Under the pieces are notes generated by a model that saw only the letters and a list, made by a program, of their open reading frames with translations, searched no databases and had not been told where the DNA came from. 64,000 bases of DNA from a virus (lineage: Duplodnaviria; Heunggongvirae; Uroviricota; Caudoviricetes), in IMG/VR virus record IMGVR_UViG_3300014886_000120. One strand, written 5' to 3'. The translations under genes and the position numbers were made by a program. Position 1 is the first letter of the stretch, and each line of letters begins with the position of its first letter. Positions 4,131 to 62,141 of the stretch are shown one piece after another.

Positions 4131-4339
4131 AGTTCCTCAGCTATCCTTTCCTTCAGATATTCTATATATCCTTTCTCAAGCATTTCACCCAGTGCTCTGG
4201 GGATGTTAATGACTATGAGGGGAGGAGAGGAAGGCTTGAGATATAAAAGAAGATCGTAGATACCTTCCACTTTGGAGTCATCAAAGTATACAGTAGCAGT
4301 CATACTCTCTAGAGTGTCAAGCTCAATCCTTATCTTCAT
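4127..4339 (-). CDS. small hypothetical protein translationally coupled to polB
   Basis: ATGA overlap with polB start; 70 aa. Confidence 0.35.
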   Translation of the reverse strand: MKIRIELDTLESMTATVYFDDSKVEGIYDLLLYLKPSSPPLIVINIPRALGEMLEKGYIEYLKERIAEEL

Positions 4340-5226
4340 CGTATCATCCCATGCTTCCTAAGGGTGGAGTATACCCATTCCATGAACACGTCCTTGATTA
4401 CATCTACCATTAGCTGTCCAGGTCTCTCTAGCTTCACAGCTCTAGCTGCATCCTGGTATTCTTCTCTTGTAAGCCTGACATGGTACATCTCACCTTTAAC
4501 CCTTTGTTCAGCTTCCTTTATCTTCTTCTCAATCTTCTCTGTTGTGTATTCATCAAGTGTGCCAGCCTTGGCTTCCTTCTGGATGTCCTCAAGATCTCTA
4601 TCTGTCAGCTTGCCTTTAGCTGCAGCTTCAGCAAGCTTGAGAGCAGCTTCAGGCTTGTTCTGGAATGCTGGACTCTTGAGTGTGGAGATAAGCAGCTTAG
4701 TTCTTCTTTGAGACTGGGTAAGCAGCTCTTCCTCTATAGGACTGTCCTTGACCACCTCAGGCAGCTTCTCGTATCCTGCCCATTCACTTATTGTCCTAGG
4801 AGACACCCCTATGATGTCAGCTAGCTCCTCCCTTCTAAGGTTTCTCATAGACTTGACAAAGAAGTACCTGTCTCTATTTGTCAACGAAAGTGAAAGCTCG
4901 TTTTCCAGGAATGAACGTATCCTGGCTTCAAGCTCACTCATCTTCTTCCTTAGACAAAACACCTTTGGTAGTCCAGCCCTCAGAGCTGCCCTATATCTTC
5001 TTGATCCTTCTATAACCTCCATGTTCTGGTCAAGTATTATAGGCCTGGTGTTTATACCAAGCTCCCTCATCGAAGTAACCAGTCCTTCTAGGTCAAGCTC
5101 TGGCAATGTCTTCCTGGCATTGTATGGTGACACTCCCTTTATCTCTTTAGGGTCTATAAATAGTATCTCCCATTCTTCCTCTTCCCTCTCTACATCCCAT
5201 TTCTTTCCTGGTGGTATCAAGCTCAT
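4336..5226 (-). CDS. ParB N-terminal-domain (ParB/Srx-like) protein with C-terminal HTH
   Basis: IEGSRRYRAALRAGLPKV resembles the ParB GERRxRA arginine box. C-terminal ADIIGVSPRTISEW HTH. Confidence 0.5.
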   Translation of the reverse strand: MSLIPPGKKWDVEREEEEWEILFIDPKEIKGVSPYNARKTLPELDLEGLVTSMRELGINTRPIILDQNMEVIEGSRRYRAALRAGLPKVFCLRKKMSELEARIRSFLENELSLSLTNRDRYFFVKSMRNLRREELADIIGVSPRTISEWAGYEKLPEVVKDSPIEEELLTQSQRRTKLLISTLKSPAFQNKPEAALKLAEAAAKGKLTDRDLEDIQKEAKAGTLDEYTTEKIEKKIKEAEQRVKGEMYHVRLTREEYQDAARAVKLERPGQLMVDVIKDVFMEWVYSTLRKHGMIR

Positions 5227-5639
5227 TTCTTCTTTCCACCTCCTTTACTCTGAATAGACATGTAGTACTTCATGATTATCTTATTACATTGGGACTCAAG
5301 CTCAACCAGTCTGCACAAGATCTCTATAGCCTTGGAATAATAGTAAGCTGAATAATTGGTAACCTCCATGTCCATCTTCTTAGCTAGCCTCATTATAGTG
5401 CCGGTATCCACAATCCTTCTATTCCTACCAAAGACATCTTCACTAGTAGGATCAGAGAACATGTGGATAGGAGATATAACAAACAGGTTGTAATAAAAAT
5501 AGAGAAGCTTAGCTAGACACTTATTGTATCTAGCTAGGCTTCCCATGTCTTCTACTAGACCTTCCTCCTTAGCCTTCTCTAGCAGACCCCTTAGCTGGTC
5601 TATTGTTTTTGCCCTGTTCATATTGGCCACCCTATGCAA
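5223..5639 (-). CDS. hypothetical protein
   Basis: 138 aa, overlaps neighbours by 4 and 8 nt; no recognisable motif. Confidence 0.35.
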   Translation of the reverse strand: MHRVANMNRAKTIDQLRGLLEKAKEEGLVEDMGSLARYNKCLAKLLYFYYNLFVISPIHMFSDPTSEDVFGRNRRIVDTGTIMRLAKKMDMEVTNYSAYYYSKAIEILCRLVELESQCNKIIMKYYMSIQSKGGGKKK

Positions 5640-6648
5640 AGTATATTGACTGGCTAGTTCCAGGAATCTTGAAGTACCCCTTAATGAAAACCACTATCGA
5701 CTTTGTGCCTCTCACTGTAACCTCTCCTAGCTCCCCAAGGATTATCAGTCTATCAGCTTCCTTGAATTTTACCGGTAGATGGTTAGCCAGATATCCTACA
5801 GCCTTGTATTCCTCTCCTTCCATCTCATCGTCCAGACCAATAATGTTCTGTTTGTCTTCCCTGAATATTATGCTGTACACATCTGCCTCTATGAACACTG
5901 GCTCTCTGTTCTCTCTACCAGCTCTCTTGAAGTGTGTGAGATAAACCATCTCTAGATCATTTAGCCTATAGATCTCCTTACCACAGTTCCTTATGAACCA
6001 CTCAAGCTCCTCTGGTGAAGGCTGAACTTCAAGCTTCCTCAGTCTAGTTACTGAGCTAGCCGACAGCTCATAGTGTGGAAGCTGTCTATCCCCTGCCCTG
6101 TCTATGGCCCTGAAGCAGTACACAGTCCCAAGCTCTGGGCTTAGGCTGGTAGCAGCTTTGTCCCAAGCCTCAAGCTTCAGGAACTTTACTCTGGACTTGT
6201 CTATCTGCCTACCGGTGCTACCTATACCATAGTATGTCCTATGATCTACTCCCTCTATAGGCTTCATGTAAGTGTCCCTGTCTTCCCTGTAATCTAGCCA
6301 TGTATTTGGATCTGGATGGTACTTAGCTTGTTCCTCCTTAGGCATCCTCTTTATCTTGGCAATCATCTGTTCAGCTGTGTTCTGTAGACCACTCTCTCCT
6401 ATGAAGAAAGCTGAGTACATTATGCTGGGAGACAGTATGCTACCCTCTTCTTTCTCTAGTCTGGCCTTTAGCTTCCTATATGCTAGCTGCAGACGTTTAA
6501 TGTTGCTCTTTACCTCTGGATATTCCTCAGCTACTACAGGTAGGTATTCAAGCATTTCCTGTCTTAGCTCGTCTACACTCACACCAAACTGCTTAGCTCG
6601 TTTCTTGAGTCTCTCCATTATCTTTTCAGGTATCTCTACACTCATCAC
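5632..6648 (-). CDS. hypothetical protein (338 aa) in the replication/recombination module
   Basis: Long ORF with no recognised motif. Confidence 0.4.
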   Translation of the reverse strand: MMSVEIPEKIMERLKKRAKQFGVSVDELRQEMLEYLPVVAEEYPEVKSNIKRLQLAYRKLKARLEKEEGSILSPSIMYSAFFIGESGLQNTAEQMIAKIKRMPKEEQAKYHPDPNTWLDYREDRDTYMKPIEGVDHRTYYGIGSTGRQIDKSRVKFLKLEAWDKAATSLSPELGTVYCFRAIDRAGDRQLPHYELSASSVTRLRKLEVQPSPEELEWFIRNCGKEIYRLNDLEMVYLTHFKRAGRENREPVFIEADVYSIIFREDKQNIIGLDDEMEGEEYKAVGYLANHLPVKFKEADRLIILGELGEVTVRGTKSIVVFIKGYFKIPGTSQSIYFA

Positions 6649-7387: not shown

Positions 7388-7603
7388 TTATAGTAAATGG
7401 GACACCGATATCTCCTGTACCTTCCTTATAAAGCATTTGAAACAGTACACTGTACCTCGTTTTCCCTTCTTCAGTCTTGGAAAGAAGAATATCATGTCAC
7501 CCTCTTTTATGGTAGCTGAACACGTGTCACATATTCCAGGTTTGTCAGCTCTAGTAAAGAAGACAGGCTCCCACTTGCTCCTCTCTCCTTTCTTAGAGCT
7601 CAC
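7388..7603 (-). CDS. small zinc-finger protein
   Basis: CDTC...CFKC motifs, 71 aa. Confidence 0.3.
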   Translation of the reverse strand: MSSKKGERSKWEPVFFTRADKPGICDTCSATIKEGDMIFFFPRLKKGKRGTVYCFKCFIRKVQEISVSHLL

Positions 7604-8598
7604 CTTACTCCCTTCCGTTTCTTCACATCTTCTATACCATACTCAGTTATCATGAACAAGCAGCTGTCTCTTGGTACAGGTCCATCGGCTATCACAGCTG
7701 ACCATGTCTTGTCTGAAGACGATACTTGATCCAGACCTATGAGGTAGTTTATGGAGTGCTTGGCTACATCAGAGACTACCGGTGGCTTCCTTATACCATA
7801 CTTCTTGATAGCTCCAAGCTGCTGACCACTGTCTGGGATTCCCATAACCTGAAGTGTGAGTACTATAGCTATGTTGTACTTGCTAGCCAGTATCTGGAGA
7901 TACCCCATGTGTCTAGCTTGCTCCTGTGATCTTGGTCCCAGAGTCTCCCTTCCAGAGTATGTACTCCTGAACTTGGCATTGAAGCTGTCTATAACCAGGA
8001 GTCCAATGTCCATTCCCTCTTTGATCTTGTCCTCTATTATCTCATAAGCCTGGAACATGTGTGTAGGGGTCTCTATGAACCTTGCTGGTACAACGAACAG
8101 ATCCTTCCTTAAATCAAAGTCCACTCCCTGAGCTTCTGCCATCTCCTTTATTCTTTCTATCTGGAGTGTCCTAGGCTCAGTCTCTATCCATGCTGAGGCT
8201 CTCCCATGTTGCTTCTTCATATTGACAACTAGCTGTTTACATAGCTGTGACTTTCCGGTAGCTATCTCACCAAAGAAAGCTGTTATGGCATCGGTAGGTA
8301 CCCCTCTACCTCCCAGTATTCTGTCTAGCTCTTCACTACCAGTTGAAATCCACTGAGTACGTTCCTCCCTTAGCTGATACTCGTCAAGGGCTGGGACTAT
8401 CTTGATGGAGTCCTTGGTAAGATCCTTAGCTGACTTTATCATTTTCTTAGCCTTAGCTACTGAGATACCAAGGATGACTGAGAGCTGCTCTGGATCCATT
8501 ATAGCCAGCTGGTTGACCGTGAGGATGTTCTTTGACTCTAGCAGCTCTACTGTCTTGGGTCCTACCCCATCTATATCTTCTAGCTTAGGCATGTTCAC
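7600..8598 (-). CDS. radA: RadA/Rad51-like recombinase
   Basis: N-terminal HhH (IDGVGPKTVELL) and a RecA core with Walker A GEIATGKSQLC; 332 aa. The palindromic motif sits 18 nt upstream of the start. Confidence 0.85.
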   Translation of the reverse strand: MNMPKLEDIDGVGPKTVELLESKNILTVNQLAIMDPEQLSVILGISVAKAKKMIKSAKDLTKDSIKIVPALDEYQLREERTQWISTGSEELDRILGGRGVPTDAITAFFGEIATGKSQLCKQLVVNMKKQHGRASAWIETEPRTLQIERIKEMAEAQGVDFDLRKDLFVVPARFIETPTHMFQAYEIIEDKIKEGMDIGLLVIDSFNAKFRSTYSGRETLGPRSQEQARHMGYLQILASKYNIAIVLTLQVMGIPDSGQQLGAIKKYGIRKPPVVSDVAKHSINYLIGLDQVSSSDKTWSAVIADGPVPRDSCLFMITEYGIEDVKKRKGVR

Positions 8599-8858
8599 AA
8601 TACCTCCATTAGTAGTATATCCGAGAGATATAGTTCAACACATTTCCCACATAGGGCAATATTCCTTCCCCTAAACCATATAATGACTACAGGAGAGACC
8701 ATCTCTTTCCCACATATGGAACAGCTAACATGTGAACTAAAGTAAATATTCAAGTCAAACGAGGGGCTTGAACTATAATAATAATTGGGGCCTTCCAATG
8801 TGGTAGCCCATAAGGTACCAGTCCAGTATGAAGGATACAAGGATGCAGGAAAGGTCAT
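8595..8858 (-). CDS. small zinc-finger protein (paralog of 8862-9119)
   Basis: CSICGK...LCGKC; ends MEVL with GGAGGT encoded in its terminal codons. Confidence 0.35.
   Translation of the reverse strand: MTFPASLYPSYWTGTLWATTLEGPNYYYSSSPSFDLNIYFSSHVSCSICGKEMVSPVVIIWFRGRNIALCGKCVELYLSDILLMEVL
8616..8632. promoter_or_regulatory. palindromic motif TATATCCGAGAGATATA (motif 1)
   Basis: Inverted repeat TATATC/GATATA with a 5-nt spacer, 18 nt upstream of the radA start. One of about 14 copies. Confidence 0.5.
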
Positions 8859-8861
8859 AAC

Positions 8862-9119
8862 CTAGAGCTCCTCTGCAATTATTATTTTGGCAAGATATTT
8901 CTGGCCGCACTTGTCACATAGCTCAAGCTTCTTCCCCTGATACAATATCTTGTAAGCCTTAGACTCCTTCACTCTCCTTCCACACACATGACACTTTATG
9001 AACTTAACCTCAATTCTTGGCCATATCGGAGCTATGGTTGAAGGAGATGTACCAGAGACCTGATAAGTGACAGAGCCAGTAGTAGTATTCAATTGCCATT
9101 GATGATGCAACCATCTCAA
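8862..9119 (-). CDS. small zinc-finger protein (paralog of 8595-8858)
   Basis: CHVCGRR...LCDKCG; 85 aa. Confidence 0.4.
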   Translation of the reverse strand: MRWLHHQWQLNTTTGSVTYQVSGTSPSTIAPIWPRIEVKFIKCHVCGRRVKESKAYKILYQGKKLELCDKCGQKYLAKIIIAEEL

Positions 9120-9355
9120 CTACTTTCACCCTCTATATAGCTCCTAATGAACTTGATGTGTTTGCACACCCTTGGTCTGGTTGTGTAATATGGACATGTA
9201 CACACCCATTTCCTGTCATCTTTCCACACATAATACAGCTTTCCCTTGGGTGATATTACCTTCCATACCCTGTAGCTTTCCTGCTTTATGATATATCCCT
9301 GCTCCAGCAAGCTGGGGCTAGACATCCCCTCTCTCCTTGAGCTTAGCCTCTTCAT
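9116..9355 (-). CDS. SWIM-type zinc-finger protein
   Basis: CTCPYYTTRPRVCKH matches the CxCxnCxH SWIM pattern. Confidence 0.45.
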   Translation of the reverse strand: MKRLSSRREGMSSPSLLEQGYIIKQESYRVWKVISPKGKLYYVWKDDRKWVCTCPYYTTRPRVCKHIKFIRSYIEGESS

Positions 9356-10190: not shown

Positions 10191-11210
10191 CTATAACATA
10201 GACAGTACCTTTCTCAGTCTAGACACAAAGCTTTCAATGTCTTGATTAGGTAGCAATGTGCAAGCTGCAAATCCATAGTGTCCACCACACAAGTATCCAA
10301 TGCTGGCTAGCTTGTTAGCCAGGTACTTAGCTTGTATCCCCCGTATGCTGACCTCCCTGTTGGTCTCATTTATAACCAGATAAGTTACATACCTGTCCGA
10401 TGACTGAAGCATGGTAGCTACCCTTGAAGCTATCCAGCTCTTAGACCTGAAACGTACTATAGCAAAGTGTCCTATCTTCTCTATCACAAGAGGGTTGCTG
10501 GAGTCATTGAATATCCTGTCTATCTCAGAGCTAATCTCATTCTGTGCCCTTATAGCTTTAGGATTGTTTATGACATCCCTCAAGCTCCTGGCACTCCTCA
10601 CTATCGAGTAAGCTCCCATAACATCCCCAGTCCTACAGAGGGCATTGACTGGACTAGATAGCTTAGAGAACAAGGGATAAGGGTATGACTTGATATTCTT
10701 GTATCTGTCCATGTAGATATTACCCTGCATGTCCCATAGTTCTTTAACGGTGTCCCATATCTCGTCTGGAATAATCTCAGGCTGTCCGTCTCCTACACAG
10801 CTCAACACAGCTAGCCATGTCTTCTCAGCCGGTATACGGTCTTTGAATAGCTTGTATATCATCAGTCCTGTTGGTACACTTCCAAGGACAAGCTTGTAGG
10901 TTATCTCTCCAATATGGTCATGATGATCTATTACTATCTTACCCTTCCATTTGTCCCTAAACAATGGAGCTCCAAGATCAAGTGCTATGTGTCCGTCCCT
11001 ATATCCCCCAAACACAGCTGGAGATCTGGGCCACTCCTTTGACTCTTCTATCTCAAATGCACAAGCTAATAGGGCACAAGCTCCTATACCGTCAGCATCA
11101 CTGTGGAAGTTAACTTGTAAAGGCTCAAGGGACTCCAGCTCTCTAACAAGCTGTTCTATGCTCTTGATGTTATAAAGTTCAAGCTCTCTCAAGACATTCC
11201 TCCCCATCAT
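10191..11210 (-). CDS. DHH-family phosphoesterase (RecJ/Cdc45/GAN-like)
   Basis: DHH motifs HSDADGIGA and IVIDHHDHIG; 339 aa. Confidence 0.65.
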   Translation of the reverse strand: MMGRNVLRELELYNIKSIEQLVRELESLEPLQVNFHSDADGIGACALLACAFEIEESKEWPRSPAVFGGYRDGHIALDLGAPLFRDKWKGKIVIDHHDHIGEITYKLVLGSVPTGLMIYKLFKDRIPAEKTWLAVLSCVGDGQPEIIPDEIWDTVKELWDMQGNIYMDRYKNIKSYPYPLFSKLSSPVNALCRTGDVMGAYSIVRSARSLRDVINNPKAIRAQNEISSEIDRIFNDSSNPLVIEKIGHFAIVRFRSKSWIASRVATMLQSSDRYVTYLVINETNREVSIRGIQAKYLANKLASIGYLCGGHYGFAACTLLPNQDIESFVSRLRKVLSML

Positions 11211-31513: not shown

Positions 31514-32473
31514 TTATCCTTCCTCTCCATCTCCTTCTTCTCCAGGTAGAGCATAGATTATAGGTGTTCCATGACCGTCTGTAGACAATATTAGCACCTT
31601 AATGTTTGGTGATATCTCCTTCAGAGCTTCAAGGTACAGATACAGCTTGGTAATCTCTTCAGTACTGTTCAAGCCAGCTGCTTTAGCTATCATCTCAATA
31701 GACTCTCTGGTGGCATTGGCAACTATCAACCTAACCTGGGCTTCAGCTTGGGCTATCCTTATCTTCTGTTGAGCTTCTGCATCAGCCAATATAACTATAC
31801 GTTCCCGTTCATACTCAGCTTGTATCTTCTTCTGTTCAGCTACCATCTTGTCCTCAATAGCTTGCATGTACTTGTCTGGTAGAGCAATGTTCCTTAGGTC
31901 AAACTCTAGATGGATTAGAGCTCCCTGGAGTGACACAGTATTCCTAAGGGCATCAAACACAGCTTCCTGGATAGCCAATGCCACAAGCTCTCTCTGGGTT
32001 ATCATCTGGATGGCTGTAAAGTTCTTGGTAACAAACCGTATGGTCTCTCTCACTGTAGAAGCTATAGCTCTGTCCTCCCAGTCAAGGTTTGGATATGACA
32101 AGTATAGAGACCTGAGCTTACTTGGATCCAAGCTCCATCTAACCATAACATCGATAGTAGCTTCAAGCTGGTCTGAAGTAAAGCATTTGATAGCTGGATA
32201 TTCTGCATAGGGGTCACTTCCATCACCCCACATGCCTATGCTTTCAGTAGCATAATAAATGAAGACCACGTACTGCCATGGCATCTTGACAAACCAACAT
32301 GGACCAAGCACAGGTTCCGATACTCCTCCAGTCATTGGGTCTATTACCAATGCTCCATATCCGGTATCTACTGATACAAACATGGTAGCAAAGAACACTC
32401 CAAGAGCTATCCCCCCTATTATCAGGGATACCAACAGAAGTGCTTTCATAGCTTTCAAGTACAGTTTCCTCAT
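31514..32473 (-). CDS. SPFH/band-7 (prohibitin/HflC-like) membrane protein
   Basis: N-terminal TM helix, SPFH core, and a coiled-coil EQKKIQAEYERERIVILADAEAQQKIRIAQAEAQ. Confidence 0.65.
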   Translation of the reverse strand: MRKLYLKAMKALLLVSLIIGGIALGVFFATMFVSVDTGYGALVIDPMTGGVSEPVLGPCWFVKMPWQYVVFIYYATESIGMWGDGSDPYAEYPAIKCFTSDQLEATIDVMVRWSLDPSKLRSLYLSYPNLDWEDRAIASTVRETIRFVTKNFTAIQMITQRELVALAIQEAVFDALRNTVSLQGALIHLEFDLRNIALPDKYMQAIEDKMVAEQKKIQAEYERERIVILADAEAQQKIRIAQAEAQVRLIVANATRESIEMIAKAAGLNSTEEITKLYLYLEALKEISPNIKVLILSTDGHGTPIIYALPGEEGDGEEG

Positions 32474-34704: not shown

Positions 34705-35478
34705 TCAGGCAGCTCTTAGCTCAACCTTCTTGTTGCTTATTAGCTTAGCTCCACACTGTGGACACATGACAATGTACTCTCTTGGAGAAGATCTGGCTTT
34801 CTTCCTTGGCTTGACTATACCTTGCAGCTTCATGTCCTGTTTCTTGATAGCTCTCAGTACTTTCTCTTCTGGAGCTCCATCAAGAACGTTCTGAAGAGCC
34901 TGGTAAGCTCGGTATACCGTAAGAGTTCCCCGATCAAGCTCAGCTACTATGTTTGGAATCTTGTCTTCATTCTCATATATTGTCTTCAGCTGGTATAGCT
35001 TGCCAGACGATATTCCCAGCTCATGGGCAACCTTGTCTCTAAGCTTTGGGAATTCGGTCAAAGTTTGTCCTAATTTCCCTTTCTTGGGTTTCCCCACCTT
35101 GTAAAAGGGCTGGAACTTCTTCTCTAAGACCTTTGCTTCCATGAACAGTTCTCTGGGTGTCTTCTGTCTGTATTTGTTAAGCATTACTATGGCAAGCTCT
35201 TCGTCTTCGTAGTATCTGATGATTACTGGTACCTTCCTTATCCCAAACCTCAATGCCCTGTTGTAACGTCTCCTACCATCCAATATCTGGAGCTCTTTGT
35301 TTACAACAAGGGGAGTACGGATGCCATTGTCAGCTATGTCCTTATCTAGCATTTCATCGATATGATCTGTATAGATTTTCTTGTTGAACGGATGTACTTC
35401 CAGCCTGTCCGTATCCACCAGATATATAGTGTCCATAGGCTTGAGCTCTCTTAGGCCAATACCTTTACCTAGACTCAA
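34705..35478 (-). CDS. ParB N-terminal-domain (ParB/Srx-like) protein with C-terminal zinc ribbon
   Basis: ILDGRRRYNRALRFGIRKVPV matches the ParB arginine box; C-terminal CPQCG. Confidence 0.5.
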   Translation of the reverse strand: MSLGKGIGLRELKPMDTIYLVDTDRLEVHPFNKKIYTDHIDEMLDKDIADNGIRTPLVVNKELQILDGRRRYNRALRFGIRKVPVIIRYYEDEELAIVMLNKYRQKTPRELFMEAKVLEKKFQPFYKVGKPKKGKLGQTLTEFPKLRDKVAHELGISSGKLYQLKTIYENEDKIPNIVAELDRGTLTVYRAYQALQNVLDGAPEEKVLRAIKKQDMKLQGIVKPRKKARSSPREYIVMCPQCGAKLISNKKVELRAA

Positions 35479-36766: not shown

Positions 36767-37507
36767 TCATATAACGTACTTTGAGAGTATCATGGTAGCA
36801 GTGAATCTTGAAACATGCTTTACTCTCCTGAGATAGTTCTCCTTGGCCATAGGGAAATATATCAGTCCTACCCTCCCAGTCCTTGTTCTAAATATAGAGT
36901 AGTTCTTGAGGACTGGGTACAAGTCCCTATACTCTTGAATAAGGTGCAAATCAGACAGTCCAGCTTCTCCAATAAACCTCTTAATCAGAGAGTGATCAAA
37001 GGGATTCAAGCTATCATCCCTTATTATCACAACATCAGCTGTGCTCCTAATCTCTTTAGATGAAGAGTGAAACCTGTGCTGTGCAAATATTGTAACTATC
37101 AGGCCATAGTTCCTGTTAATCATCTTGCTCCATAAGTGTCTAATGTTAAAGTAAGCCTTTAAGGCCAAGGTAGGAGTTTCATCTATAGTAAAATCATCTA
37201 CAAAGACAAGCTGAACGAGCTTCCTATTAAGGCCAGTAGACAGAATAGACATGAGATCCCCCTTGATCATTACTGGATTAACATTGCGTCTGCCATAGAT
37301 ACGTACAGCTTCTTCAGCTATCGACCTTACAAGCTCTGTCTTGCCAGAGCCCTGAGCTGAAAACAAGATTACTCTCTTGTGCTTGATGGCATTTGTCCTA
37401 TACTTCGTCTCTGGAACCATCTTTATAGCTTCAACACTTGGAAACAAATACCTTATGAAATATTCATTGTCACATGGTAGATAAAACATATCCTTAAGGT
37501 TGGTCAA
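36767..37507 (-). CDS. P-loop NTPase
   Basis: Walker A FSAQGSGKTEL and Walker B LVFVDDF; 246 aa. Confidence 0.5.
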   Translation of the reverse strand: MTNLKDMFYLPCDNEYFIRYLFPSVEAIKMVPETKYRTNAIKHKRVILFSAQGSGKTELVRSIAEEAVRIYGRRNVNPVMIKGDLMSILSTGLNRKLVQLVFVDDFTIDETPTLALKAYFNIRHLWSKMINRNYGLIVTIFAQHRFHSSSKEIRSTADVVIIRDDSLNPFDHSLIKRFIGEAGLSDLHLIQEYRDLYPVLKNYSIFRTRTGRVGLIYFPMAKENYLRRVKHVSRFTATMILSKYVI

Positions 37508-37593
37508 CTATAGCCACCTTTTTGTACATTTCCAAGCATCTTAGCATCCCTCTTGGATAATACTAAGACTCTAAGGAAAAATTATACGTTTGG

Positions 37594-38181
37594 TTACCCG
37601 AGTAGCTCCATACTCAAGTAGACACAGTAAATGTTCTTGTGCATTCTTTCAATGACATACGGAGTCTCTAGTGTACAACATAGCCTGACAGCTCCTTCTT
37701 TTTCTTTTGCACTATAACAGAATGAACCAGCAACTATATCATGGATTGTACACCCGTAGATCTCGTCAGCTAGAACCACCTTCCTTACTTTTGTCCACAG
37801 TTCATTCCATGAAGTCACTATAGGGTTCATAGCTAGAAACCTCTCCAGAGCTACAAAGACATGGCTACAAACCAAGCCATCTTTAAGGATACCCTCAGTG
37901 TGGAAGCCACATACACCACATTTAGCCATGGTAAAGACATATTTCCCAGGTTGTCCTGACACATCAGATATGCTCTCAGCTCCCTTAGGAAGAGGTATCT
38001 CAACATATTCTATATCTTCTCTTCTAGGGGTAACAGACATGCTTCTCGGTAGAGCTATGTCACACATCTCTTCTATCCCTATACAGCCACAAATAACATC
38101 TTTATCTCCAAAGTAGGAGCACAATATCCAGGGGCTATGTGGTGCTTTTACTTGGTACCTACATCTTAGCTCTTCACTCAT
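37594..38181 (-). CDS. Cys-rich hypothetical protein
   Basis: 195 aa, many Cys. Confidence 0.35.
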   Translation of the reverse strand: MSEELRCRYQVKAPHSPWILCSYFGDKDVICGCIGIEEMCDIALPRSMSVTPRREDIEYVEIPLPKGAESISDVSGQPGKYVFTMAKCGVCGFHTEGILKDGLVCSHVFVALERFLAMNPIVTSWNELWTKVRKVVLADEIYGCTIHDIVAGSFCYSAKEKEGAVRLCCTLETPYVIERMHKNIYCVYLSMELLG

Positions 38182-38217
38182 ATTATGAACCCCTATATCT
38201 GATGGATATAAATAAGC

Positions 38218-39018
38218 TTAAAGGAACTCTATTACTCCAAGTGATGACATTAGATTGTTCAGCTTCTTATATAATACCATCTTAGTCCTTATGTCTGTTC
38301 TCCTACTCCATATTCTCATAGACATTTCTTCATAAAAGTCCTTCAAGCTCATCCCTCCATAATAATAATACCTGGAGAATATGCCTTGGTAGTACACCTT
38401 TGGAAACAGTTCAGGAAGAGCCTCCTTTAAAGCTGAGATATAAGGTTCAACACTAACCATGAATAAGTCATTGATAGCTTTGTTGAACCTTCTACTTGCA
38501 TCATAAATCTCCATAATTGCCTCGTCCAGGTCTTCAATAGTAAGATGTTTAGTGTGCCTTCTGTATAAGCTTCTAACTACAGACACCAAGATAGAGTAAT
38601 ATCTCCCAAAATGTCTGGCTTTCCTACATAAGATGGCATGAGCTTTTAGACTAATTGTTCCATCCACAGAGTTGCTAACCATAACACCGGTGCTATTCTT
38701 TTCTATAAACATATAGAGCCTCCAGTCAGGTTCAGCTATACTAACCCTAAACCCTCTCTTCCTGGCTATCTCCATAACAGCTGTCTTAACATCCTCATTA
38801 GGTATCAGCTTATAACGCCTGCTTACTATGGCTACTAAACATCCATCCTTGACTATGGCTTTGTACCTCGTATTATTACCTCTAAACAACAGGATCTTTT
38901 CTTGGTATCCATACGGTCTGTCCACAGTCCGTTCTACCTCAAACTCTACTAAGAGCTTTTCTGGTCTATTAGCTCTATCCACCTCCAGCATAAACATGCA
39001 CCACTCATTAACAATCAA
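38218..39018 (-). CDS. hypothetical protein (266 aa)
   Basis: No motif recognised. Confidence 0.35.
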   Translation of the reverse strand: MIVNEWCMFMLEVDRANRPEKLLVEFEVERTVDRPYGYQEKILLFRGNNTRYKAIVKDGCLVAIVSRRYKLIPNEDVKTAVMEIARKRGFRVSIAEPDWRLYMFIEKNSTGVMVSNSVDGTISLKAHAILCRKARHFGRYYSILVSVVRSLYRRHTKHLTIEDLDEAIMEIYDASRRFNKAINDLFMVSVEPYISALKEALPELFPKVYYQGIFSRYYYYGGMSLKDFYEEMSMRIWSRRTDIRTKMVLYKKLNNLMSSLGVIEFL

Positions 39019-39263
39019 AAGAGCTCGTTATGCTCTAGATACTTTTTCTCCCACTTCCCTCTCCTGATGCATATGTACACCTCTCTAGACACAAACTTTC
39101 TAATTGCAGCTAAGATTTGTTCTCGATATGTACGTTTAGAAAGGCCTATAACTATATTGCCCTCAGCATCCAACGTTATATACTCAAGCCTGGCAAACAC
39201 AGTTATCTCGTCCATTCTAGTCCAACCTCCTATAATGAATAGTCCTTCATGGACACTACACAT
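39015..39263 (-). CDS. hypothetical protein
   Basis: 82 aa; 4-nt overlap with the downstream gene. Confidence 0.3.
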   Translation of the reverse strand: MCSVHEGLFIIGGWTRMDEITVFARLEYITLDAEGNIVIGLSKRTYREQILAAIRKFVSREVYICIRRGKWEKKYLEHNELF

Positions 39264-40516
39264 GGAAAGTATGTAGGTATCCTACTAGGATCTCCCTTCT
39301 TGGATACTACCCATATTACGGTAAGATTTGAAGGTACCTCTCCAGGTAAAGGAAAGACACCATAAGCATCTGTAAAGTACACTAGAACTTTGGCTCTAGG
39401 CCTATTCTCCCTTATCCATCGAAATATAGGTCTAAAGTCAGTTCCTCCTCCACCTTTAAGTCTGGCAACTCTCAAATCATATTCTGAAGCTACCTTGTTA
39501 GCATCGTACAATCTAGAGTCACAGCTGAAGAGGAGTATCTCTACACTCTTGAAAGACCTTAATATTCCAAGAAGCTCACCGATCCCGTCTTTCACTTCTT
39601 CAGATGACATTGAGCCAGAAGTATCCACACAAGCTATGAGTTCAACCTTCTCTTTCTCAAGAGATGGAAAGTAGATATCAGTCACTATAGACTTCCTACT
39701 TGGTCTTCTATAAGAAAAATTGAAGGGAATACTTCTGGTCACTAAACGGGCCAGTAGCTCTCTCCATGAAAGCTTGGGCTCTACTAAATCATCTATCAGC
39801 CTCTCCATTCCAAGTGGTAGCTTGCCTATTATCTTAGCTCGTTCAAAAGCATCCTTGACTATTCTTCTCCAGTTCGGGACATGCTTCTCTGGCTCCAAGT
39901 CAGCTAGCTCCTCTGGTAGTCCGAGTTCTCTGAGTTTCTGTTTGTCTAGCTTACCATTTGGGCCTCTAGCCTGCTCAAGCTTGTCTCCAAAGATATGCCT
40001 ATCCAAGCTACCTTGTCTACAGATTACCCCGTCCTTAGACACACGTGGGATGGTACCTCTGAACGGACACTTACTACAGTCCAGTGTACACATTCTGGCA
40101 GAACGAAGTGGATCATCAGGTAGCTTGTCATATATCTCTTCCCATGCCATGCCCTTCCATCTCTCGTCTATTAGAGCTCCTCTAGGAAGAACAAACTCTC
40201 TTCTGATAATCAAGTTGAGAGCTAAGTCCATGGCAATGTTAGCCTTATATGGGTCTCGTTTACCCAGTCTCTCTAGATGCCTAAGCATGACATGTCCAAC
40301 TTCATGGGCTAGTACCCCTTTGAGCTCTTCTATGCTCAGCCTCTCTACAAACTCTTCTGAATAATAGACAGTTCCAAGATGGTTCACTCCCATAGTAGGG
40401 AGAAACGTACACTTGACAAAATTAAGGTGGAGAACAAGAGTACCCCAGAAAGGCTGTCTAGACAATAGCTGTATCCTAGCTTTTGATATCTTCTCTTCTG
40501 GAGACAACTTAGGCAT
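39230..40516 (-). CDS. HExxH zinc-metallopeptidase-like plus vWA domain protein (MoxR partner type)
   Basis: N-terminal GVLAHEVGHVMLRH (HExxH). Central Cys cluster CTLDCSKCP...C. C-terminal vWA MIDAS ACVDTSGSM. Confidence 0.6.
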   Translation of the reverse strand: MPKLSPEEKISKARIQLLSRQPFWGTLVLHLNFVKCTFLPTMGVNHLGTVYYSEEFVERLSIEELKGVLAHEVGHVMLRHLERLGKRDPYKANIAMDLALNLIIRREFVLPRGALIDERWKGMAWEEIYDKLPDDPLRSARMCTLDCSKCPFRGTIPRVSKDGVICRQGSLDRHIFGDKLEQARGPNGKLDKQKLRELGLPEELADLEPEKHVPNWRRIVKDAFERAKIIGKLPLGMERLIDDLVEPKLSWRELLARLVTRSIPFNFSYRRPSRKSIVTDIYFPSLEKEKVELIACVDTSGSMSSEEVKDGIGELLGILRSFKSVEILLFSCDSRLYDANKVASEYDLRVARLKGGGGTDFRPIFRWIRENRPRAKVLVYFTDAYGVFPLPGEVPSNLTVIWVVSKKGDPSRIPTYFPCVVSMKDYSL

Positions 40517-40533
40517 CTACACTACCTCCTAAG

Positions 40534-41748
40534 TCATTCACCTACAATGTCAAAGTATGGAGACAGCCTTGCAACAAATGGAGAGTACTCCTTTATCTCA
40601 AGTATGTTCCTCTTGAAGAAAGCTTCGTCAGTTGACTTAACCAGCTTGAGTAGGAAGACAGCAAACTCAGCTGTTAGTCTATTTGCAAATACGACTATGC
40701 TTCTCAGAGTCTCTCTCGTCTTGTGATGAATGAAGTAATCCACCAGGTTAGTACACAAAGTATAAAGCAAGTCCAGATTCTCTGGTATAGGCATAGTGTC
40801 TGGGTTCCTAATGAACTCCTCTACTGGAGGTAACTTTCTCCTGGCCTCTAGAAATGCCCTGAACATCTCAGCTACGTAAGTTCCCACCCTACCAGAGACA
40901 TACAGCATCACTTCCTCTTCATCGTACACTCCCTTAATGAGGTTGCTAGCTCTTTCCCATGATCTTGGAGTAGCAAAAGCTTTCTCTCTGTGTCCAGGCT
41001 TGTGGGTATACAGTGCTGAATTGTTAGTGTTGATGAAGCCTATTATCCTATGGTCTATGCCATGTTGTAGAGCCCATTCTGTCCAATCCTCTACAGAGGG
41101 AACTCCAAGCTCATACCAGCTGAACCTGTCATTGAGTGGATCTCCAAAGTCAAATGTAGGAGCTCCATCCAGAGGCCCTCTATTACCAGCTCCTATAACA
41201 ATGTACCCATCAGGTAGTGTGTAGTCTCCAAAACACCTGTCATTGATGAGCTCATAACATACTGCTTGGACAAGAGGTGGAGCCAGGTTGAACTCATCTA
41301 GGAATATAATTCCATGACCAGCATATGGCATCCAGCCAGGCTTGTTCCATTTAGTGATATAGTCTACTATCTTGACATCCTTGTAGTCATCTCTATCCAC
41401 GAACTGAGGTAATATCCTTACCGGTATCAGCTCAAATCTTCCCTTTACCTTTACCAGAGCATAATTATCCGGTAATCCCATTACTTCACCAGCATCTTTC
41501 TGGGCTATACGTTGGTCTACAAAGCAGAACTTGTCTACATGCTGGTTAGGCATCTTGGTCTCTATGAACTCAAGGCTGAGCTCTTGAGCCAGCTCCATAG
41601 CTGCATCCCTAGCTGTATAGCTCTTCCCTACACCTATAGGTCCCTCAATAAATATTGGTTCTTTAGTATAGTAAGCTCTCTTTATTATCTTCTTGAGCTG
41701 TTTATGGTTCACCTGGATGATATTGCCACTTCTTATGCGTTTACTCAT
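40534..41748 (-). CDS. MoxR-like AAA+ ATPase
   Basis: Walker A GPIGVGKS and Walker B IIFLDEFNLAP (MoxR has DEINRA); 404 aa. Sits immediately upstream of the vWA-peptidase gene. Confidence 0.6.
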   Translation of the reverse strand: MSKRIRSGNIIQVNHKQLKKIIKRAYYTKEPIFIEGPIGVGKSYTARDAAMELAQELSLEFIETKMPNQHVDKFCFVDQRIAQKDAGEVMGLPDNYALVKVKGRFELIPVRILPQFVDRDDYKDVKIVDYITKWNKPGWMPYAGHGIIFLDEFNLAPPLVQAVCYELINDRCFGDYTLPDGYIVIGAGNRGPLDGAPTFDFGDPLNDRFSWYELGVPSVEDWTEWALQHGIDHRIIGFINTNNSALYTHKPGHREKAFATPRSWERASNLIKGVYDEEEVMLYVSGRVGTYVAEMFRAFLEARRKLPPVEEFIRNPDTMPIPENLDLLYTLCTNLVDYFIHHKTRETLRSIVVFANRLTAEFAVFLLKLVKSTDEAFFKRNILEIKEYSPFVARLSPYFDIVGE

Positions 41749-51903: not shown

Positions 51904-53520
51904 CTAGGTAAAACCCTCTATTTTCCTAGGTAACACTCCTGGCTTTCTCCTAACCTTCTTAAACATCTTGTCCTTATCTACGATCTTGATGCCATGTCTA
52001 TCTAGCTCTTCTATTATAGCTGCCTTTAGAGATAGAAGTATCCTATCAAACTCTTCACGACTAATAAGACCCTTCCTAAAGCTGTATGGTAAGCCAAAGC
52101 AATTACTTGGTCTAGAAATATCAGTAGCTTGAGAGTACCCGTCTAGCCTAAAGCCATACAGCTGCTTCCCTCTCTCTCTCCTTAGCCCAAACAGTACTAT
52201 ATCGTAAGGATGATTAAGGTACATTTCTAGCTCTTTAAGAACTATCCTGGTTATTTCTAAAGACCACTCATCTGAGAATCCAATAGACAGCTTGTAACCT
52301 TCACTAGTCGGGATACCCCAGTTACCCAAAATGTTATAATAGTGATTTCGTAGCTTGCCAGTAGCAAATGCTCTAAACAGCTTGTACTCTCTTCTTGACA
52401 ACCCACATATACGTTTGTAGTCTTCGTACTTCAATCTCCTATTGTACACTATCCGTCTATGGTTGACATAGTAATTAGCTACACCTCTGGCTATCTTCAA
52501 GACTATCCTAGCTATCTCTGGGAAGCATAGCCATGCAGATGGAGGTGTACGATACTCGAATCCCCATGGCTTAGGTTCAATAGCTGATAATCTGTTGTAT
52601 CCATGTCTAGCATGACCAGACTCACTCCTTAAAGGCTTACCTATAAAGTCATCCAACATCTTTATTAGGTTACCACTTGGGAATATACCAAAATGTATGT
52701 GTCCACCAAGAGGATCATGGTCTCCTTTGACTCCAATAATATGATATACCCTGCTAGCCTTCATCAACAAATTGTGAATGTTACGTACTAGCTGTACATG
52801 ACTCACTGAAGGTTCTGGTCTTATCTCTAGCTGGCTACCAGCTCCATCACACCCAACATCTTCATGATACCCAGGAGTGTAATCCTCAGCTCTAACTATC
52901 CTCCCACCAATGAACACTTCAAATTCTGGATCACATCCTATGGTAACCTTGACAGCCCTCTTTCTCTTCTTGACCTTAGATAATGGAACCAGACCAAAAT
53001 GCTCTAGTGAAGATAGCATAGAGCTCAAAATGTCATGCTGAGTAGCTGTATAGTCATGAGTAAAGTCAGACAAAACCAGTACCTTTAGCTTTGGACAATA
53101 CCCACCACAGACAAGTTCGTTCAATTTAAGCTTTACACAGGCTCTAGATATGAACTCTATCTGAGAAGATATTAGATCGTCCCAGCATGAACCAAGCTCG
53201 TTAGACGGAGCTGTGAAGGGGATTAACACTTCTTGCTTCATATTACAAGAGACACAGTCAAGCTGACGTAGCTCTCTTGAACATCCAGAGAATATTAAAC
53301 ATTTAGACTCGTCTGATGACGGTACTTTAGGGTCATGGTATATTATCTCTGAATGTGCTGCTACACAGCTGAAATACTTTGATAGGAGGTCAATGTAGTA
53401 GCTGCTATGTTCCATAGTCTTCAGGACGCCAGGTACTACACTTGTCCCACCAGATAGAACTATCTTGTCTGAGTTCTTACTCTCCTCTCTCCTAGGCATT
53501 TTAATCTCCTCTTCTAGCAT
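51904..53520 (-). CDS. large hypothetical protein, candidate carboxylate-amine ligase (GS-like amidoligase) or PP-loop synthetase partner of the GATase
   Basis: GCDPEFEVFIGG resembles the ExE metal-binding strand of the glutamine-synthetase fold (GPEPEFF). N-terminal VLSGGTSVV is a degenerate PP-loop-like SGG motif. 22-nt gap to the GATase gene. Confidence 0.35.
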   Translation of the reverse strand: MLEEEIKMPRREESKNSDKIVLSGGTSVVPGVLKTMEHSSYYIDLLSKYFSCVAAHSEIIYHDPKVPSSDESKCLIFSGCSRELRQLDCVSCNMKQEVLIPFTAPSNELGSCWDDLISSQIEFISRACVKLKLNELVCGGYCPKLKVLVLSDFTHDYTATQHDILSSMLSSLEHFGLVPLSKVKKRKRAVKVTIGCDPEFEVFIGGRIVRAEDYTPGYHEDVGCDGAGSQLEIRPEPSVSHVQLVRNIHNLLMKASRVYHIIGVKGDHDPLGGHIHFGIFPSGNLIKMLDDFIGKPLRSESGHARHGYNRLSAIEPKPWGFEYRTPPSAWLCFPEIARIVLKIARGVANYYVNHRRIVYNRRLKYEDYKRICGLSRREYKLFRAFATGKLRNHYYNILGNWGIPTSEGYKLSIGFSDEWSLEITRIVLKELEMYLNHPYDIVLFGLRRERGKQLYGFRLDGYSQATDISRPSNCFGLPYSFRKGLISREEFDRILLSLKAAIIEELDRHGIKIVDKDKMFKKVRRKPGVLPRKIEGFT

Positions 53521-61295: not shown

Positions 61296-62141
61296 ATGTA
61301 TAATTGGATACACTTCTGTATTACAAAGTTTTATAAGGAGTTAAAAACTATTCAAATGTTAAAAAAAACGTGGTTGGAGATGGGAAGAATGGCAAGACCG
61401 AGAACCAAGGGAACGAGAATCTTAAGAACCTCACTAAAAGAGTACTTAGAGCAAGGACTAAGCTATAGGGAGATTGGCAACATACTAGGCTTAAGTAGAG
61501 AACTGGTTTATTACTATGCCAAACTATGGAATCTAAGGAATCTCAACGCACACAAGAAGTATAAGGAGTACTGTAAAACTAGACTCTACACCAGGAAGCT
61601 GATAAATCCCTTGATGTCCCTCCATGCTAATGCCTCAATGGATATATCCGAAATAACCTTTAGAAGACAGCGAGGGAAGAGATCCAGGTCTATACGCAAG
61701 TATATGCTAACCTTCACAAAGGGGAAGACCTACATAGTGTTCATGGATAACCAGAGAGATGAGGATATAGCTATGGCTATAACCAAACTCTTGACCCTTG
61801 GGATAATAAATAAGGGAGATAAAATCCTAGTGGATAAGCAGCTAAACAGTAAGTTACCATACACCAGCCTCAAAGGTGTGTATCTATGCAATACTCCTAA
61901 ATGGCATGCAAGTAAAAGCACCACCGAAAAAAGACATGGCTTCAAGACTTCGGTCTATGCCAAATTCTGGAGATTCAAGACCTCAAGCTATGCAAAGATG
62001 GATAACGACATGAAAGCACTCCTCCTAAAGATGTATCTTGAATCACTACAGCTAAACCCCAACTATGAAATCATCAACCCAGAAACACCAGAGAGATGGA
62101 TAAGGGAACTCCAAAGCATAACAGTAAAGACACCACACTAA
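61296..62141 (+). CDS. HTH-domain protein, the only supported plus-strand gene
   Basis: LEQGLSYREIGNILGLSRELVYYY resolvase/sigma-region-4-like HTH. TATA-like TTATATACTATA about 25 nt upstream. C-rich+T6 terminator-like element directly after the stop. Confidence 0.45.
   Translation: MYNWIHFCITKFYKELKTIQMLKKTWLEMGRMARPRTKGTRILRTSLKEYLEQGLSYREIGNILGLSRELVYYYAKLWNLRNLNAHKKYKEYCKTRLYTRKLINPLMSLHANASMDISEITFRRQRGKRSRSIRKYMLTFTKGKTYIVFMDNQRDEDIAMAITKLLTLGIINKGDKILVDKQLNSKLPYTSLKGVYLCNTPKWHASKSTTEKRHGFKTSVYAKFWRFKTSSYAKMDNDMKALLLKMYLESLQLNPNYEIINPETPERWIRELQSITVKTPH

Follow-up and report, generated by a model that had tools for sequence, protein, structure and literature searches.

The 64,000-nt stretch analysed here (IMG/VR virus record IMGVR_UViG_3300014886_000120, hereafter the window) carries on its minus strand, at positions 36767-41748, a cluster of six genes that opens with a predicted AAA+ ATPase gene (A) and a gene for a putative metallopeptidase-vWA protein (B), followed by a small gene (C), a distant DUF932-like gene (D), a Cys-rich gene (E) and a P-loop NTPase gene (F). 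All six open reading frames (ORFs) were confirmed at their coordinates, and the motifs quoted in an initial annotation of this DNA were present: GPIGVGKS and FLDEF in A, HEVGHVMLRH and DTSGS in B, and GSGKT and VFVDD in F. The six ORFs are genuine genes rather than chance ORFs: A and B gave strong family matches, and homologues of C, D, F and each half of E were found in other viral contigs. We read the window as a large archaeal tailed virus; its products include a family-B DNA polymerase, an archaeal-type RadA (Rad51 and HHH_5 matches), an ATP-dependent DNA ligase, a KaiC-like ATPase, two ParB-like proteins, DHH/RecJ-like proteins and a large terminase subunit. Among its relatives, one contig was binned with a Nitrososphaerota metagenome-assembled genome and bears a STIV_B116-like gene. 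The features of the two leading genes are as follows.

40534-41748, minus strand: gene A, 404 amino acids (aa), predicted AAA_5/midasin-like (MoxR in the broad sense) AAA+ ATPase
41620-41643, minus strand: Walker A of A, GPIGVGKS, residues 36-43
41290-41304, minus strand: Walker B of A, FLDEF, residues 149-153
41179-41190, minus strand: AGNR of A, putative sensor 1, N189
41122-41133, minus strand: NDRF of A, putative Arg finger, R208
40957-40971, minus strand: TPRSW of A, putative sensor 2, R262
39230-40516, minus strand: gene B, 428 aa, predicted DUF2201_N HExxH metallopeptidase fused to a DUF2201 vWA domain with a MIDAS (metal ion-dependent adhesion site)
40277-40306, minus strand: HExxHxxxxH of B, HEVGHVMLRH, residues 71-80
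40019-40090, minus strand: Cys4 insert of B, C-x3-C-x2-C-x17-C, residues 143-166
39611-39625, minus strand: MIDAS DxSxS of B, DTSGS, residues 298-302
39437-39454, minus strand: GGGGTD of B, residues 355-360
39365-39376, minus strand: FTDA of B, residues 381-384

Gene A matched the PHROG family phrog_1297 ('ATPase') at E=2.7e-75. A clamp-loader identity, which would also have contradicted the initial annotation, was rejected, as phrog_168 gave only E=0.088 against this value. Plain sequence searches of A and of B against the PDB returned nothing useful and profiles were required; the best matches of the A-family profile were the AAA modules of Midasin/Rea1 (E=6.7e-23), followed by p97 and NtrC near 1e-8. 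The Pfam scan of A gave no match to AAA_3 (PF07726), a sub-threshold match to AAA_5, and a Sigma54_activat match that spans the P-loop region only (residues 15-49). For comparison we used labelled loci, L005-L028, which include metagenomic viral contigs and, as L017, phage N4; among the A relatives in them, AAA_5 was matched without qualification in L012 and faintly in L011 and L016. Residues G36, G39, G41, K42, D151, E152, N189, R208 and R262 were invariant over 11 A homologues, and the putative roles of N189, R208 and R262 as sensor 1, Arg finger and sensor 2 follow the motif order of MoxR-type ATPases. A ~40-residue insert between Walker A and Walker B is found in the archaeal-virus clade. 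The sub-threshold AAA_5 match, the AAA_5 matches of the relatives and the Midasin profile match together indicate that A is a divergent member of the AAA_5 assemblage (midasin/dynein/CbbQ-NorQ), being neither MoxR proper nor RavA. The MoxR-type assignment of the initial annotation can thus be kept in the broad AAA_5 sense and has to be given up in the strict one.

Residues 7-286 of the B protein matched DUF2201_N ("putative metallopeptidase") at 4.5e-32 (112.2 bits, cut-off 23.2) and residues 294-410 matched DUF2201 ("VWA-like") at 9.4e-19 (68.2 bits, cut-off 26.4), and B matched phrog_1314 at 5.4e-78. In an alignment of 30 homologues with 29-60% identity, H75 of the metal motif was invariant and H71, E72 and H80 were kept in at least 90% of sequences, so that the predicted metal site, the HExxH named in the initial annotation plus a third His, is invariant or nearly so. 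The MIDAS was complete in the same alignment, with D298, S300, S302, T359 and D383 all invariant. The B-family profile gave weak PDB matches to integrin I-domains, to the minimal metallopeptidase selecase MJ1213 and to M48 peptidases. Between the two domains lies the Cys4 insert, whose four Cys are all kept in the nine homologues closest to B, each of which comes from a similar metagenomic viral contig; the more distant homologue P0017 carries a different, longer CxxC...CxxC insert, and no Cys4 insert was found in the bacterial and phage homologues of the alignment. The peptidase and vWA MIDAS domains of B were therefore named correctly in the initial annotation, and its "zinc ribbon" appears instead to be a metal-binding insert specific to the archaeal-virus clade.

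By their family matches, A and B belong to PHROG 1297 and PHROG 1314, the family of gp24 and gp25 of phage N4, both of which match the A and B profiles (gp24 is annotated "ATPase"). The pair is thus an already catalogued one rather than a new system, a point that the initial annotation had missed for the PHROGs, for N4 and for the literature alike. In N4-like phages gp24 and gp25 ("vWFA domain") are among 14 core genes, with function unknown, and in N4 itself they are middle transcripts (Chan et al. 2014, PMC4193335), and a MoxR protein together with a vWA protein bearing an N-terminal metallopeptidase was described in group 2.2 jumbo phages (Iyer et al. 2021, Viruses 13:63, PMC7824862). A tblastn search of GenBank phages found A-like genes in 821 records and B-like genes in 709, with nearly equal counts by organism (A/B: Escherichia 215/208, Pseudomonas 112/110, Vibrio 99/98). 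The carriers included N4-like Schitoviridae, the jumbo phages Bacillus phage G, PA5oct and 121Q-like phages, and Thermus phage phiFa. At the DNA level, a search of the cluster region against GenBank phages gave no match. Single-protein scans of IMG/VR with B or D returned no close relatives, and an alignment-based scan with D succeeded.

The two genes are adjacent or overlapping in the window (17-nt gap), L014, L015, L019, L016, L011, L020 and Pantoea phage G19; in N4, gp24 and gp25 are neighbours with 167 nt between them. One to five small genes separate A from B in L006/L007, L008, L012, L013 and phiFa, and in Bacillus phage G the distance reaches ~4.5 kb. Linkage was kept in every relative examined that had both genes in the available sequence, as the initial annotation would have predicted, and A-B is a real unit.

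Two homologues were found interrupted by inteins, that of A in L013 (7371-9692; Intein_splicing and LAGLIDADG_3) and that of B in L019 (5024-7309; Intein_splicing at 7.9e-13), and Intein_splicing was also detected in 3 of 50 scanned members of the F family. Inteins favour strongly conserved proteins, such as replication or other essential ones, and their presence in A, B and F homologues fits, as an indirect sign, important core functions. Many phage records give B homologues the erroneous name 'HNH endonuclease' or 'homing endonuclease', as in NC_008720 gp25 (N4), NC_023719 gp576 and NC_071039. This mislabelling in RefSeq/GenBank apparently stems from the label of PHROG 1314, the proteins themselves being, by their domain matches, DUF2201 metallopeptidase-vWA proteins.

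In most genomes examined, the pair lies in a block of replication, repair or nucleotide-metabolism genes. In the window, L006 and L008 it adjoins genes for an ATP-dependent ligase, ParB and methyltransferases. Beside it stand PLD, ligase, Ku and PD-(D/E)XK genes in L010; a DUF5906/VapE-like gene (weak VapE match), an SNF2 helicase and PolA in L012; RNase H and a recombination protein in phiFa; and RNAPII, dCTP deaminase and a helicase in N4. The L013 pair likewise stands in a replication/repair context. This context, together with the middle-gene status of the pair in N4, favours action in early to middle infection over virion maturation.

The AAA_5 catalytic motifs of A and the MIDAS and HExxH...H of B are intact, and the two proteins are paired across bacterial and archaeal viruses. 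We regard it as reasonably probable that A and B form a functional unit, a two-protein ATP-driven module for protein remodelling or processing that acts in early to middle infection, with C, D and F as non-obligate company. In such a module A would form an AAA_5/midasin-like ring, and B would act as its adaptor, docking on the ring through the vWA domain. The MIDAS of B would engage an acidic residue of the target, ATP hydrolysis by A would remodel or extract this target, and the N-terminal HExxHxxxxH zinc peptidase of B would cut the engaged protein. Targets would be replication-associated or host proteins, rather than head or tail proteins, met in early to middle infection. Ring formation, docking, MIDAS engagement and remodelling are drawn by analogy from established knowledge of RavA-ViaA, CbbQ-CbbO, NorQ-NorD and Midasin; in the MoxR-vWA and midasin systems studied, the MIDAS grips an acidic residue of the partner or substrate.

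Several points weigh against this reading. The match of A to Pfam AAA_5 (PF07728) reached 18.4 bits, below the cut-off of 22. The literature searched contained no biochemical or genetic work on members of this family, the searches covering functional studies of DUF2201, of N4-like vWA proteins and of MoxR in archaeal tailed viruses. Gene position is weak evidence of timing in an archaeal virus with all genes on one strand, and in the 121Q-like jumbo Salmonella phage Munch the context is ambiguous, as the pair lies ~5 kb from a head-completion gene. Gene D lies 1-3.5 kb from the pair in the divergent L011, L016 and L020 despite other gene orders, which hints at more than passive synteny. Finally, in the one viral MoxR-vWA pair that has been studied, that of Acidianus two-tailed virus (ATV), the MoxR protein p618 binds the vWA protein p892 and tail proteins, and acts in tail development (PMC4124505).

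The ATV precedent and the Munch locus would both fit a virion-assembly chaperone-protease, which would fold or assemble head or tail proteins and mature them proteolytically; ATV p618/p892 served as the model when this function, with peptidolytic processing, was proposed for the group 2.2 jumbo phages that carry the same two domain proteins (PMC7824862), and the initial annotation had also suggested a virion-maturation machine. The published proposal notwithstanding, we consider virion assembly unlikely. In the window the pair lies more than 20 kb from the terminase gene, amid ligase, ParB and methylase genes, and its replication/repair context recurs in L006, L008, L010, L012, L013, phiFa and N4, where the gp24/gp25 transcripts are middle rather than late (PMC4193335). 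Moreover, in smaller related viruses an S78-type prohead protease is encoded separately, beside the capsid gene, and ATV p892 is without a peptidase domain.

The same early/middle genomic context and the core status of the pair in N4-like phages would also suit a host-takeover or anti-defence protease, destroying or dismantling host proteins (immune or nucleoid) early in infection. Cellular vWA-MoxR genes form conflict systems (PMC7159879) with which viral counterparts could interfere, and DUF932 genes are found on plasmids and integrated elements. However, accessory status and a patchy distribution would be expected of an anti-defence gene, and the pair is instead core in viruses of hosts as unlike as Escherichia, Thermus, Bacillus and archaea; similarity to the system components catalogued in PADLOC was not detected. 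We hold this alternative to be quite unlikely.

A further question is whether the neighbours of the pair belong to the same machine. Their features are as follows.

39015-39263, minus strand: gene C, probably 66 aa (39015-39215); 82 aa if read from the first ATG
38218-39018, minus strand: gene D, 266 aa, more likely 257 aa from 38991, putative distant DUF932-like protein
38659-38673, minus strand: NSVDG motif of D, invariant
37594-38181, minus strand: gene E, 195 aa with 13 Cys, a ~50-aa N-terminal Cys-rich module and a ~135-aa C-terminal domain
36767-37507, minus strand: gene F, 246 aa, more likely 240 aa from 37489, predicted P-loop NTPase of an unnamed family
within 37337-37360, minus strand: P-loop of F, GSGKT
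37193-37207, minus strand: Walker B of F, VFVDD
37067-37078, minus strand: HRFH of F, conserved, as is R123

The later starts of C, D and F were those chosen by gene callers on an identical public contig (Logan run SRR14699971, 109-128 kb), giving 66, 257 and 240 aa. With these shorter forms, the intergenic gaps from A to E are 17, 14, 23 and 36 nt, with 104 nt ahead of F and 146 nt past it. GGAGG-type ribosome-binding sites precede A, B and the 66-aa start of C. Within 38182-38217, ~25 nt upstream of where E starts, there is an AT-rich sequence resembling a TATA box, TTATTTATAT; because A, B and C have GGAGG sites whereas E is preceded by this element, E may have its own archaeal promoter. 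Scans for sigma-70 promoters and terminators gave no excess over shuffled expectation, these models not being applicable to an archaeal virus. All substantial ORFs at 33-46 kb of the window are minus-strand ones; since all genes around the cluster share one strand, strand gives no operon boundary.

C and E gave no family match in Pfam, PHROG, NCBIfam or PADLOC, and the NCBIfam scan of the cluster proteins made no assignment. L014, L015, L019 and, in two copies, L005 have homologues of C next to their clusters. The D protein combines an N-terminal alpha/beta domain with a C-terminal helical bundle; its match to Pfam DUF932 (PF06067) was 15.7 bits, below the cut-off of 23, and 8 of 23 close D homologues matched DUF932 at E<0.1, the best at 1.1e-6. 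A fold search of BFVD with D ranked one DUF932 protein first (E 2.8e-7, TMq 0.60) and a second one 11th; a solved DUF932 structure for comparison was not found. The D homologues P0122 and P0143 have an additional N-terminal domain of 60-90 aa with the motif VWL.K...KAVL...WLPKSQIK, which is not present in the window D. The C-terminal half of E resembles a free-standing 136-aa ORF in L014, 6 kb upstream of the pair, and its N-terminal module resembles short ORFs (65-71 aa) at other places in L005, L015 and L019, so that E is a lineage-specific fusion that is not kept in place.

For F, Pfam matches were at P-loop level only (for example nSTAND3 at 7e-4) and the F profile found generic AAA+/P-loop matches in the PDB. 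A profile search of 1.84 billion representatives yielded 381 clusters, which no Pfam family covered beyond P-loop-level matches (nSTAND3, SF3 RNA_helicase, AAA, DUF815). In the long F homologues P0168, P0173, P0184, P0186 and P0192 (538-668 aa) the F profile matched two separate stretches. An AF2 model of F, built from three sequences, had a pLDDT of 37 and was not used for a fold search.

In a close group of related metagenomic viruses, A is 45-58% and B 43-59% identical to the window proteins, and the company of the pair recurs in varying order. The order is B-C-x-D-radical SAM-methyltransferase-C'-F-ParB in L005, A-B-x-C-SPFH-x-x-D-F in L015 and L019, with F directly after D, A-B-x-D-C in L014, with no F within 10 kb, and A-four small genes-B-five small genes-D in L007. 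In genomes of greater divergence D is still close to the pair, but arranged differently, as A-B-x-x-D in L016 and D-x-A-B in L011 and L020; F was not found within 10 kb of the L016 pair. Altogether, the pair lies at most 3.5 kb from D in 9 of 14 distinct D-bearing loci. D is also encoded by smaller relatives, and stands without A or B inside the available flanks of L021-L023, L024, L025, L027 and L028, this absence being less certain for L025 and L027, where the contig ends ~3 kb from D; in L021 and L024, D is placed between prohead protease and capsid genes on one side and a block of RecA-like ATPase, primase and PolB on the other. No C, D or F was found near the pair in the bacterial-phage and distant A-B loci examined, nor a DUF932 gene beside it in N4, phiFa, L010, L012 and L013. 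N4 gp30, considered as a DUF932 counterpart, was rejected as ThyX-like. By sequence comparison, C, D and F are thus neighbours conserved within one archaeal-virus group in variable order, possibly co-regulated with the pair, and the association of D with the pair is frequent and not obligatory.

It could be argued from the same data that A, B, C, D, perhaps E, and F constitute one archaeal-virus machine with D and F as obligate partners. The proximity of D in those nine loci, including the divergent L011, L016 and L020, the F gene directly following D in L015 and L019, the recurrence of C in L005, L014, L015 and L019 and the tight spacing from A to E are all in its favour. The loci with D alone and the A/B loci free of C, D and F speak against it, as do the radical-SAM, methyltransferase and SPFH genes interposed in L005 and L015, the missing F in L014 and L016 and the displacement of E. 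We find an obligate multi-component machine improbable, and are just as doubtful that the AAA_5 ATPase, the vWA-peptidase, the DUF932-like protein, C and the P-loop NTPase together form a split protease, driven by ATP and with its role at the replication stage. If true, such a machine would offer the first functional handle on DUF932 and on N4 gp24/gp25, which have stood unexplained since the annotation of the N4 genome. Of the picture in which the pair leads four tightly packed genes, the close spacing from A to E was borne out, and the remainder has to be revised in view of the 104 nt before F, the variable order, the inserted genes and the displacement of E. A virus-borne defence of the vWA-MoxR conflict type (superinfection exclusion or abortive infection), also raised in the initial annotation and in keeping with cellular vWA-MoxR ternary systems predicted as defence (PMC7159879), is most improbable, as matches in PADLOC were confined to P-loop-level ones with A and F, none being obtained with B, C, D or E, the Pfam scan found no VMAP-like or effector domain, and the pair is core in lytic N4-like phages.

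The SPFH gene seen in L015 has a counterpart in the window (31514-32473, minus strand; SPFH/Band 7, phrog_200), which was 80% identical by tblastn to the L015 protein (8219-9166), whereas the flanking A, B, D and F were only 40-53% identical to theirs. N4 gp20 (L017 3257-4093), four genes upstream of gp24, is also an SPFH protein (Pfam 1.2e-23), and in Vibrio phage pVa5 an SPFH gene lies three genes past the ATPase gene. Co-distribution of SPFH with the pair was not shown by tblastn, which at that sensitivity gave mainly haloarchaeal viruses.

Elsewhere in the window, nearly all genes are on the minus strand and the GC skew is negative in each 2-kb window of 1-64000; the sole long plus-strand ORF not overlapped by a longer minus-strand ORF lies at 61296-62141 (281 aa). 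No tRNA or Rfam element was found across the 64 kb. Two ParB_N-like proteins are encoded on the minus strand, at 34705-35478 and 4336-5226; the former lies downstream of the cluster and has a CxxC motif (CPQCGAKL) at its end, and its counterpart in L005 directly follows the F homologue. In a 538-aa protein (51904-53520, minus strand), Pfam detected a COOH-NH2 ligase type 2 domain of the phiEco32-like kind (7.7e-22), an enzyme unusual for an archaeal virus. Two proteins of ~338 aa each (5632-6648 and 10191-11210, both minus strand) gave weak RecJ_OB and DHHA1 (DHH phosphoesterase) matches; their genes flank RadA (7600-8598), with PolB (1587-4130) nearby, and the virus may thereby encode factors of the GAN/Cdc45-like kind.

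The A-B pair occurs in tailed viruses of bacteria and of archaea and bears clade-specific inserts. What is new here is the Cys4 insert of B, the insert of A, the argument from genomic context, and the recurrence beside the pair, in one archaeal-virus group, of a DUF932-like protein, a small protein and a P-loop NTPase from a family in which some members bear inteins, none of the three being obligate. Any lead on gp24/gp25 would be useful, as they are 2 of only 14 N4-like core genes and have no assigned function, and N4 is tractable.

Among known systems, N4 gp24/gp25 shows the same two families in the same order, in the non-structural (middle/replication) part of the genome, with an SPFH protein encoded in both genomes. 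Identity between the N4 and window pairs is only ~26-30%, however, the Cys4 of B and the ~40-residue insert of A belong to the archaeal-virus clade and not to N4, and C, D and F of the window have no counterparts in N4. The group 2.2 jumbo phages share an identical domain architecture, and 121Q-like phages are among the tblastn matches; the function proposed for them is virion assembly, whereas the surroundings of the pair in the window and in N4-like phages suggest a replication/middle block. ATV p618/p892 is likewise an AAA+ and vWA pair of an archaeal virus, in which the ATPase interacts with the vWA protein and is stimulated by it (PMC4124505). Unlike B, p892 has no peptidase domain, and p618, which is RavA-like, belongs to the virion of a non-tailed virus and acts in extracellular tail growth; a sequence relation between ATV p618/p892 and the window pair was not detected.

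For D, the comparison is with DUF932 of phages, plasmids and integrative elements, to which it is linked by the BFVD fold match and by weak sequence matches below the Pfam cut-off. FtsH-HflK/HflC, in which SPFH proteins regulate an AAA+ fused to an HExxH protease, offers a functional analogy only, the shared elements being AAA+, an HExxH zinc peptidase and a nearby SPFH gene. FtsH pairs a classical AAA+ with an M41 peptidase, whereas the window has AAA_5 and DUF2201_N (M48/minigluzincin-like); in further contrast to FtsH, A and B have no detected membrane anchor and the SPFH linkage in the window is loose. Midasin/Rea1, which serves eukaryotic ribosome assembly, is a single giant chain that holds six AAA modules and a C-terminal MIDAS domain but lacks a peptidase, in contrast to the two small proteins of the window, and is the best solved relative of the ATPase module of A; the predicted A-B module would share its logic, an AAA_5 ring combined with a substrate-gripping MIDAS.

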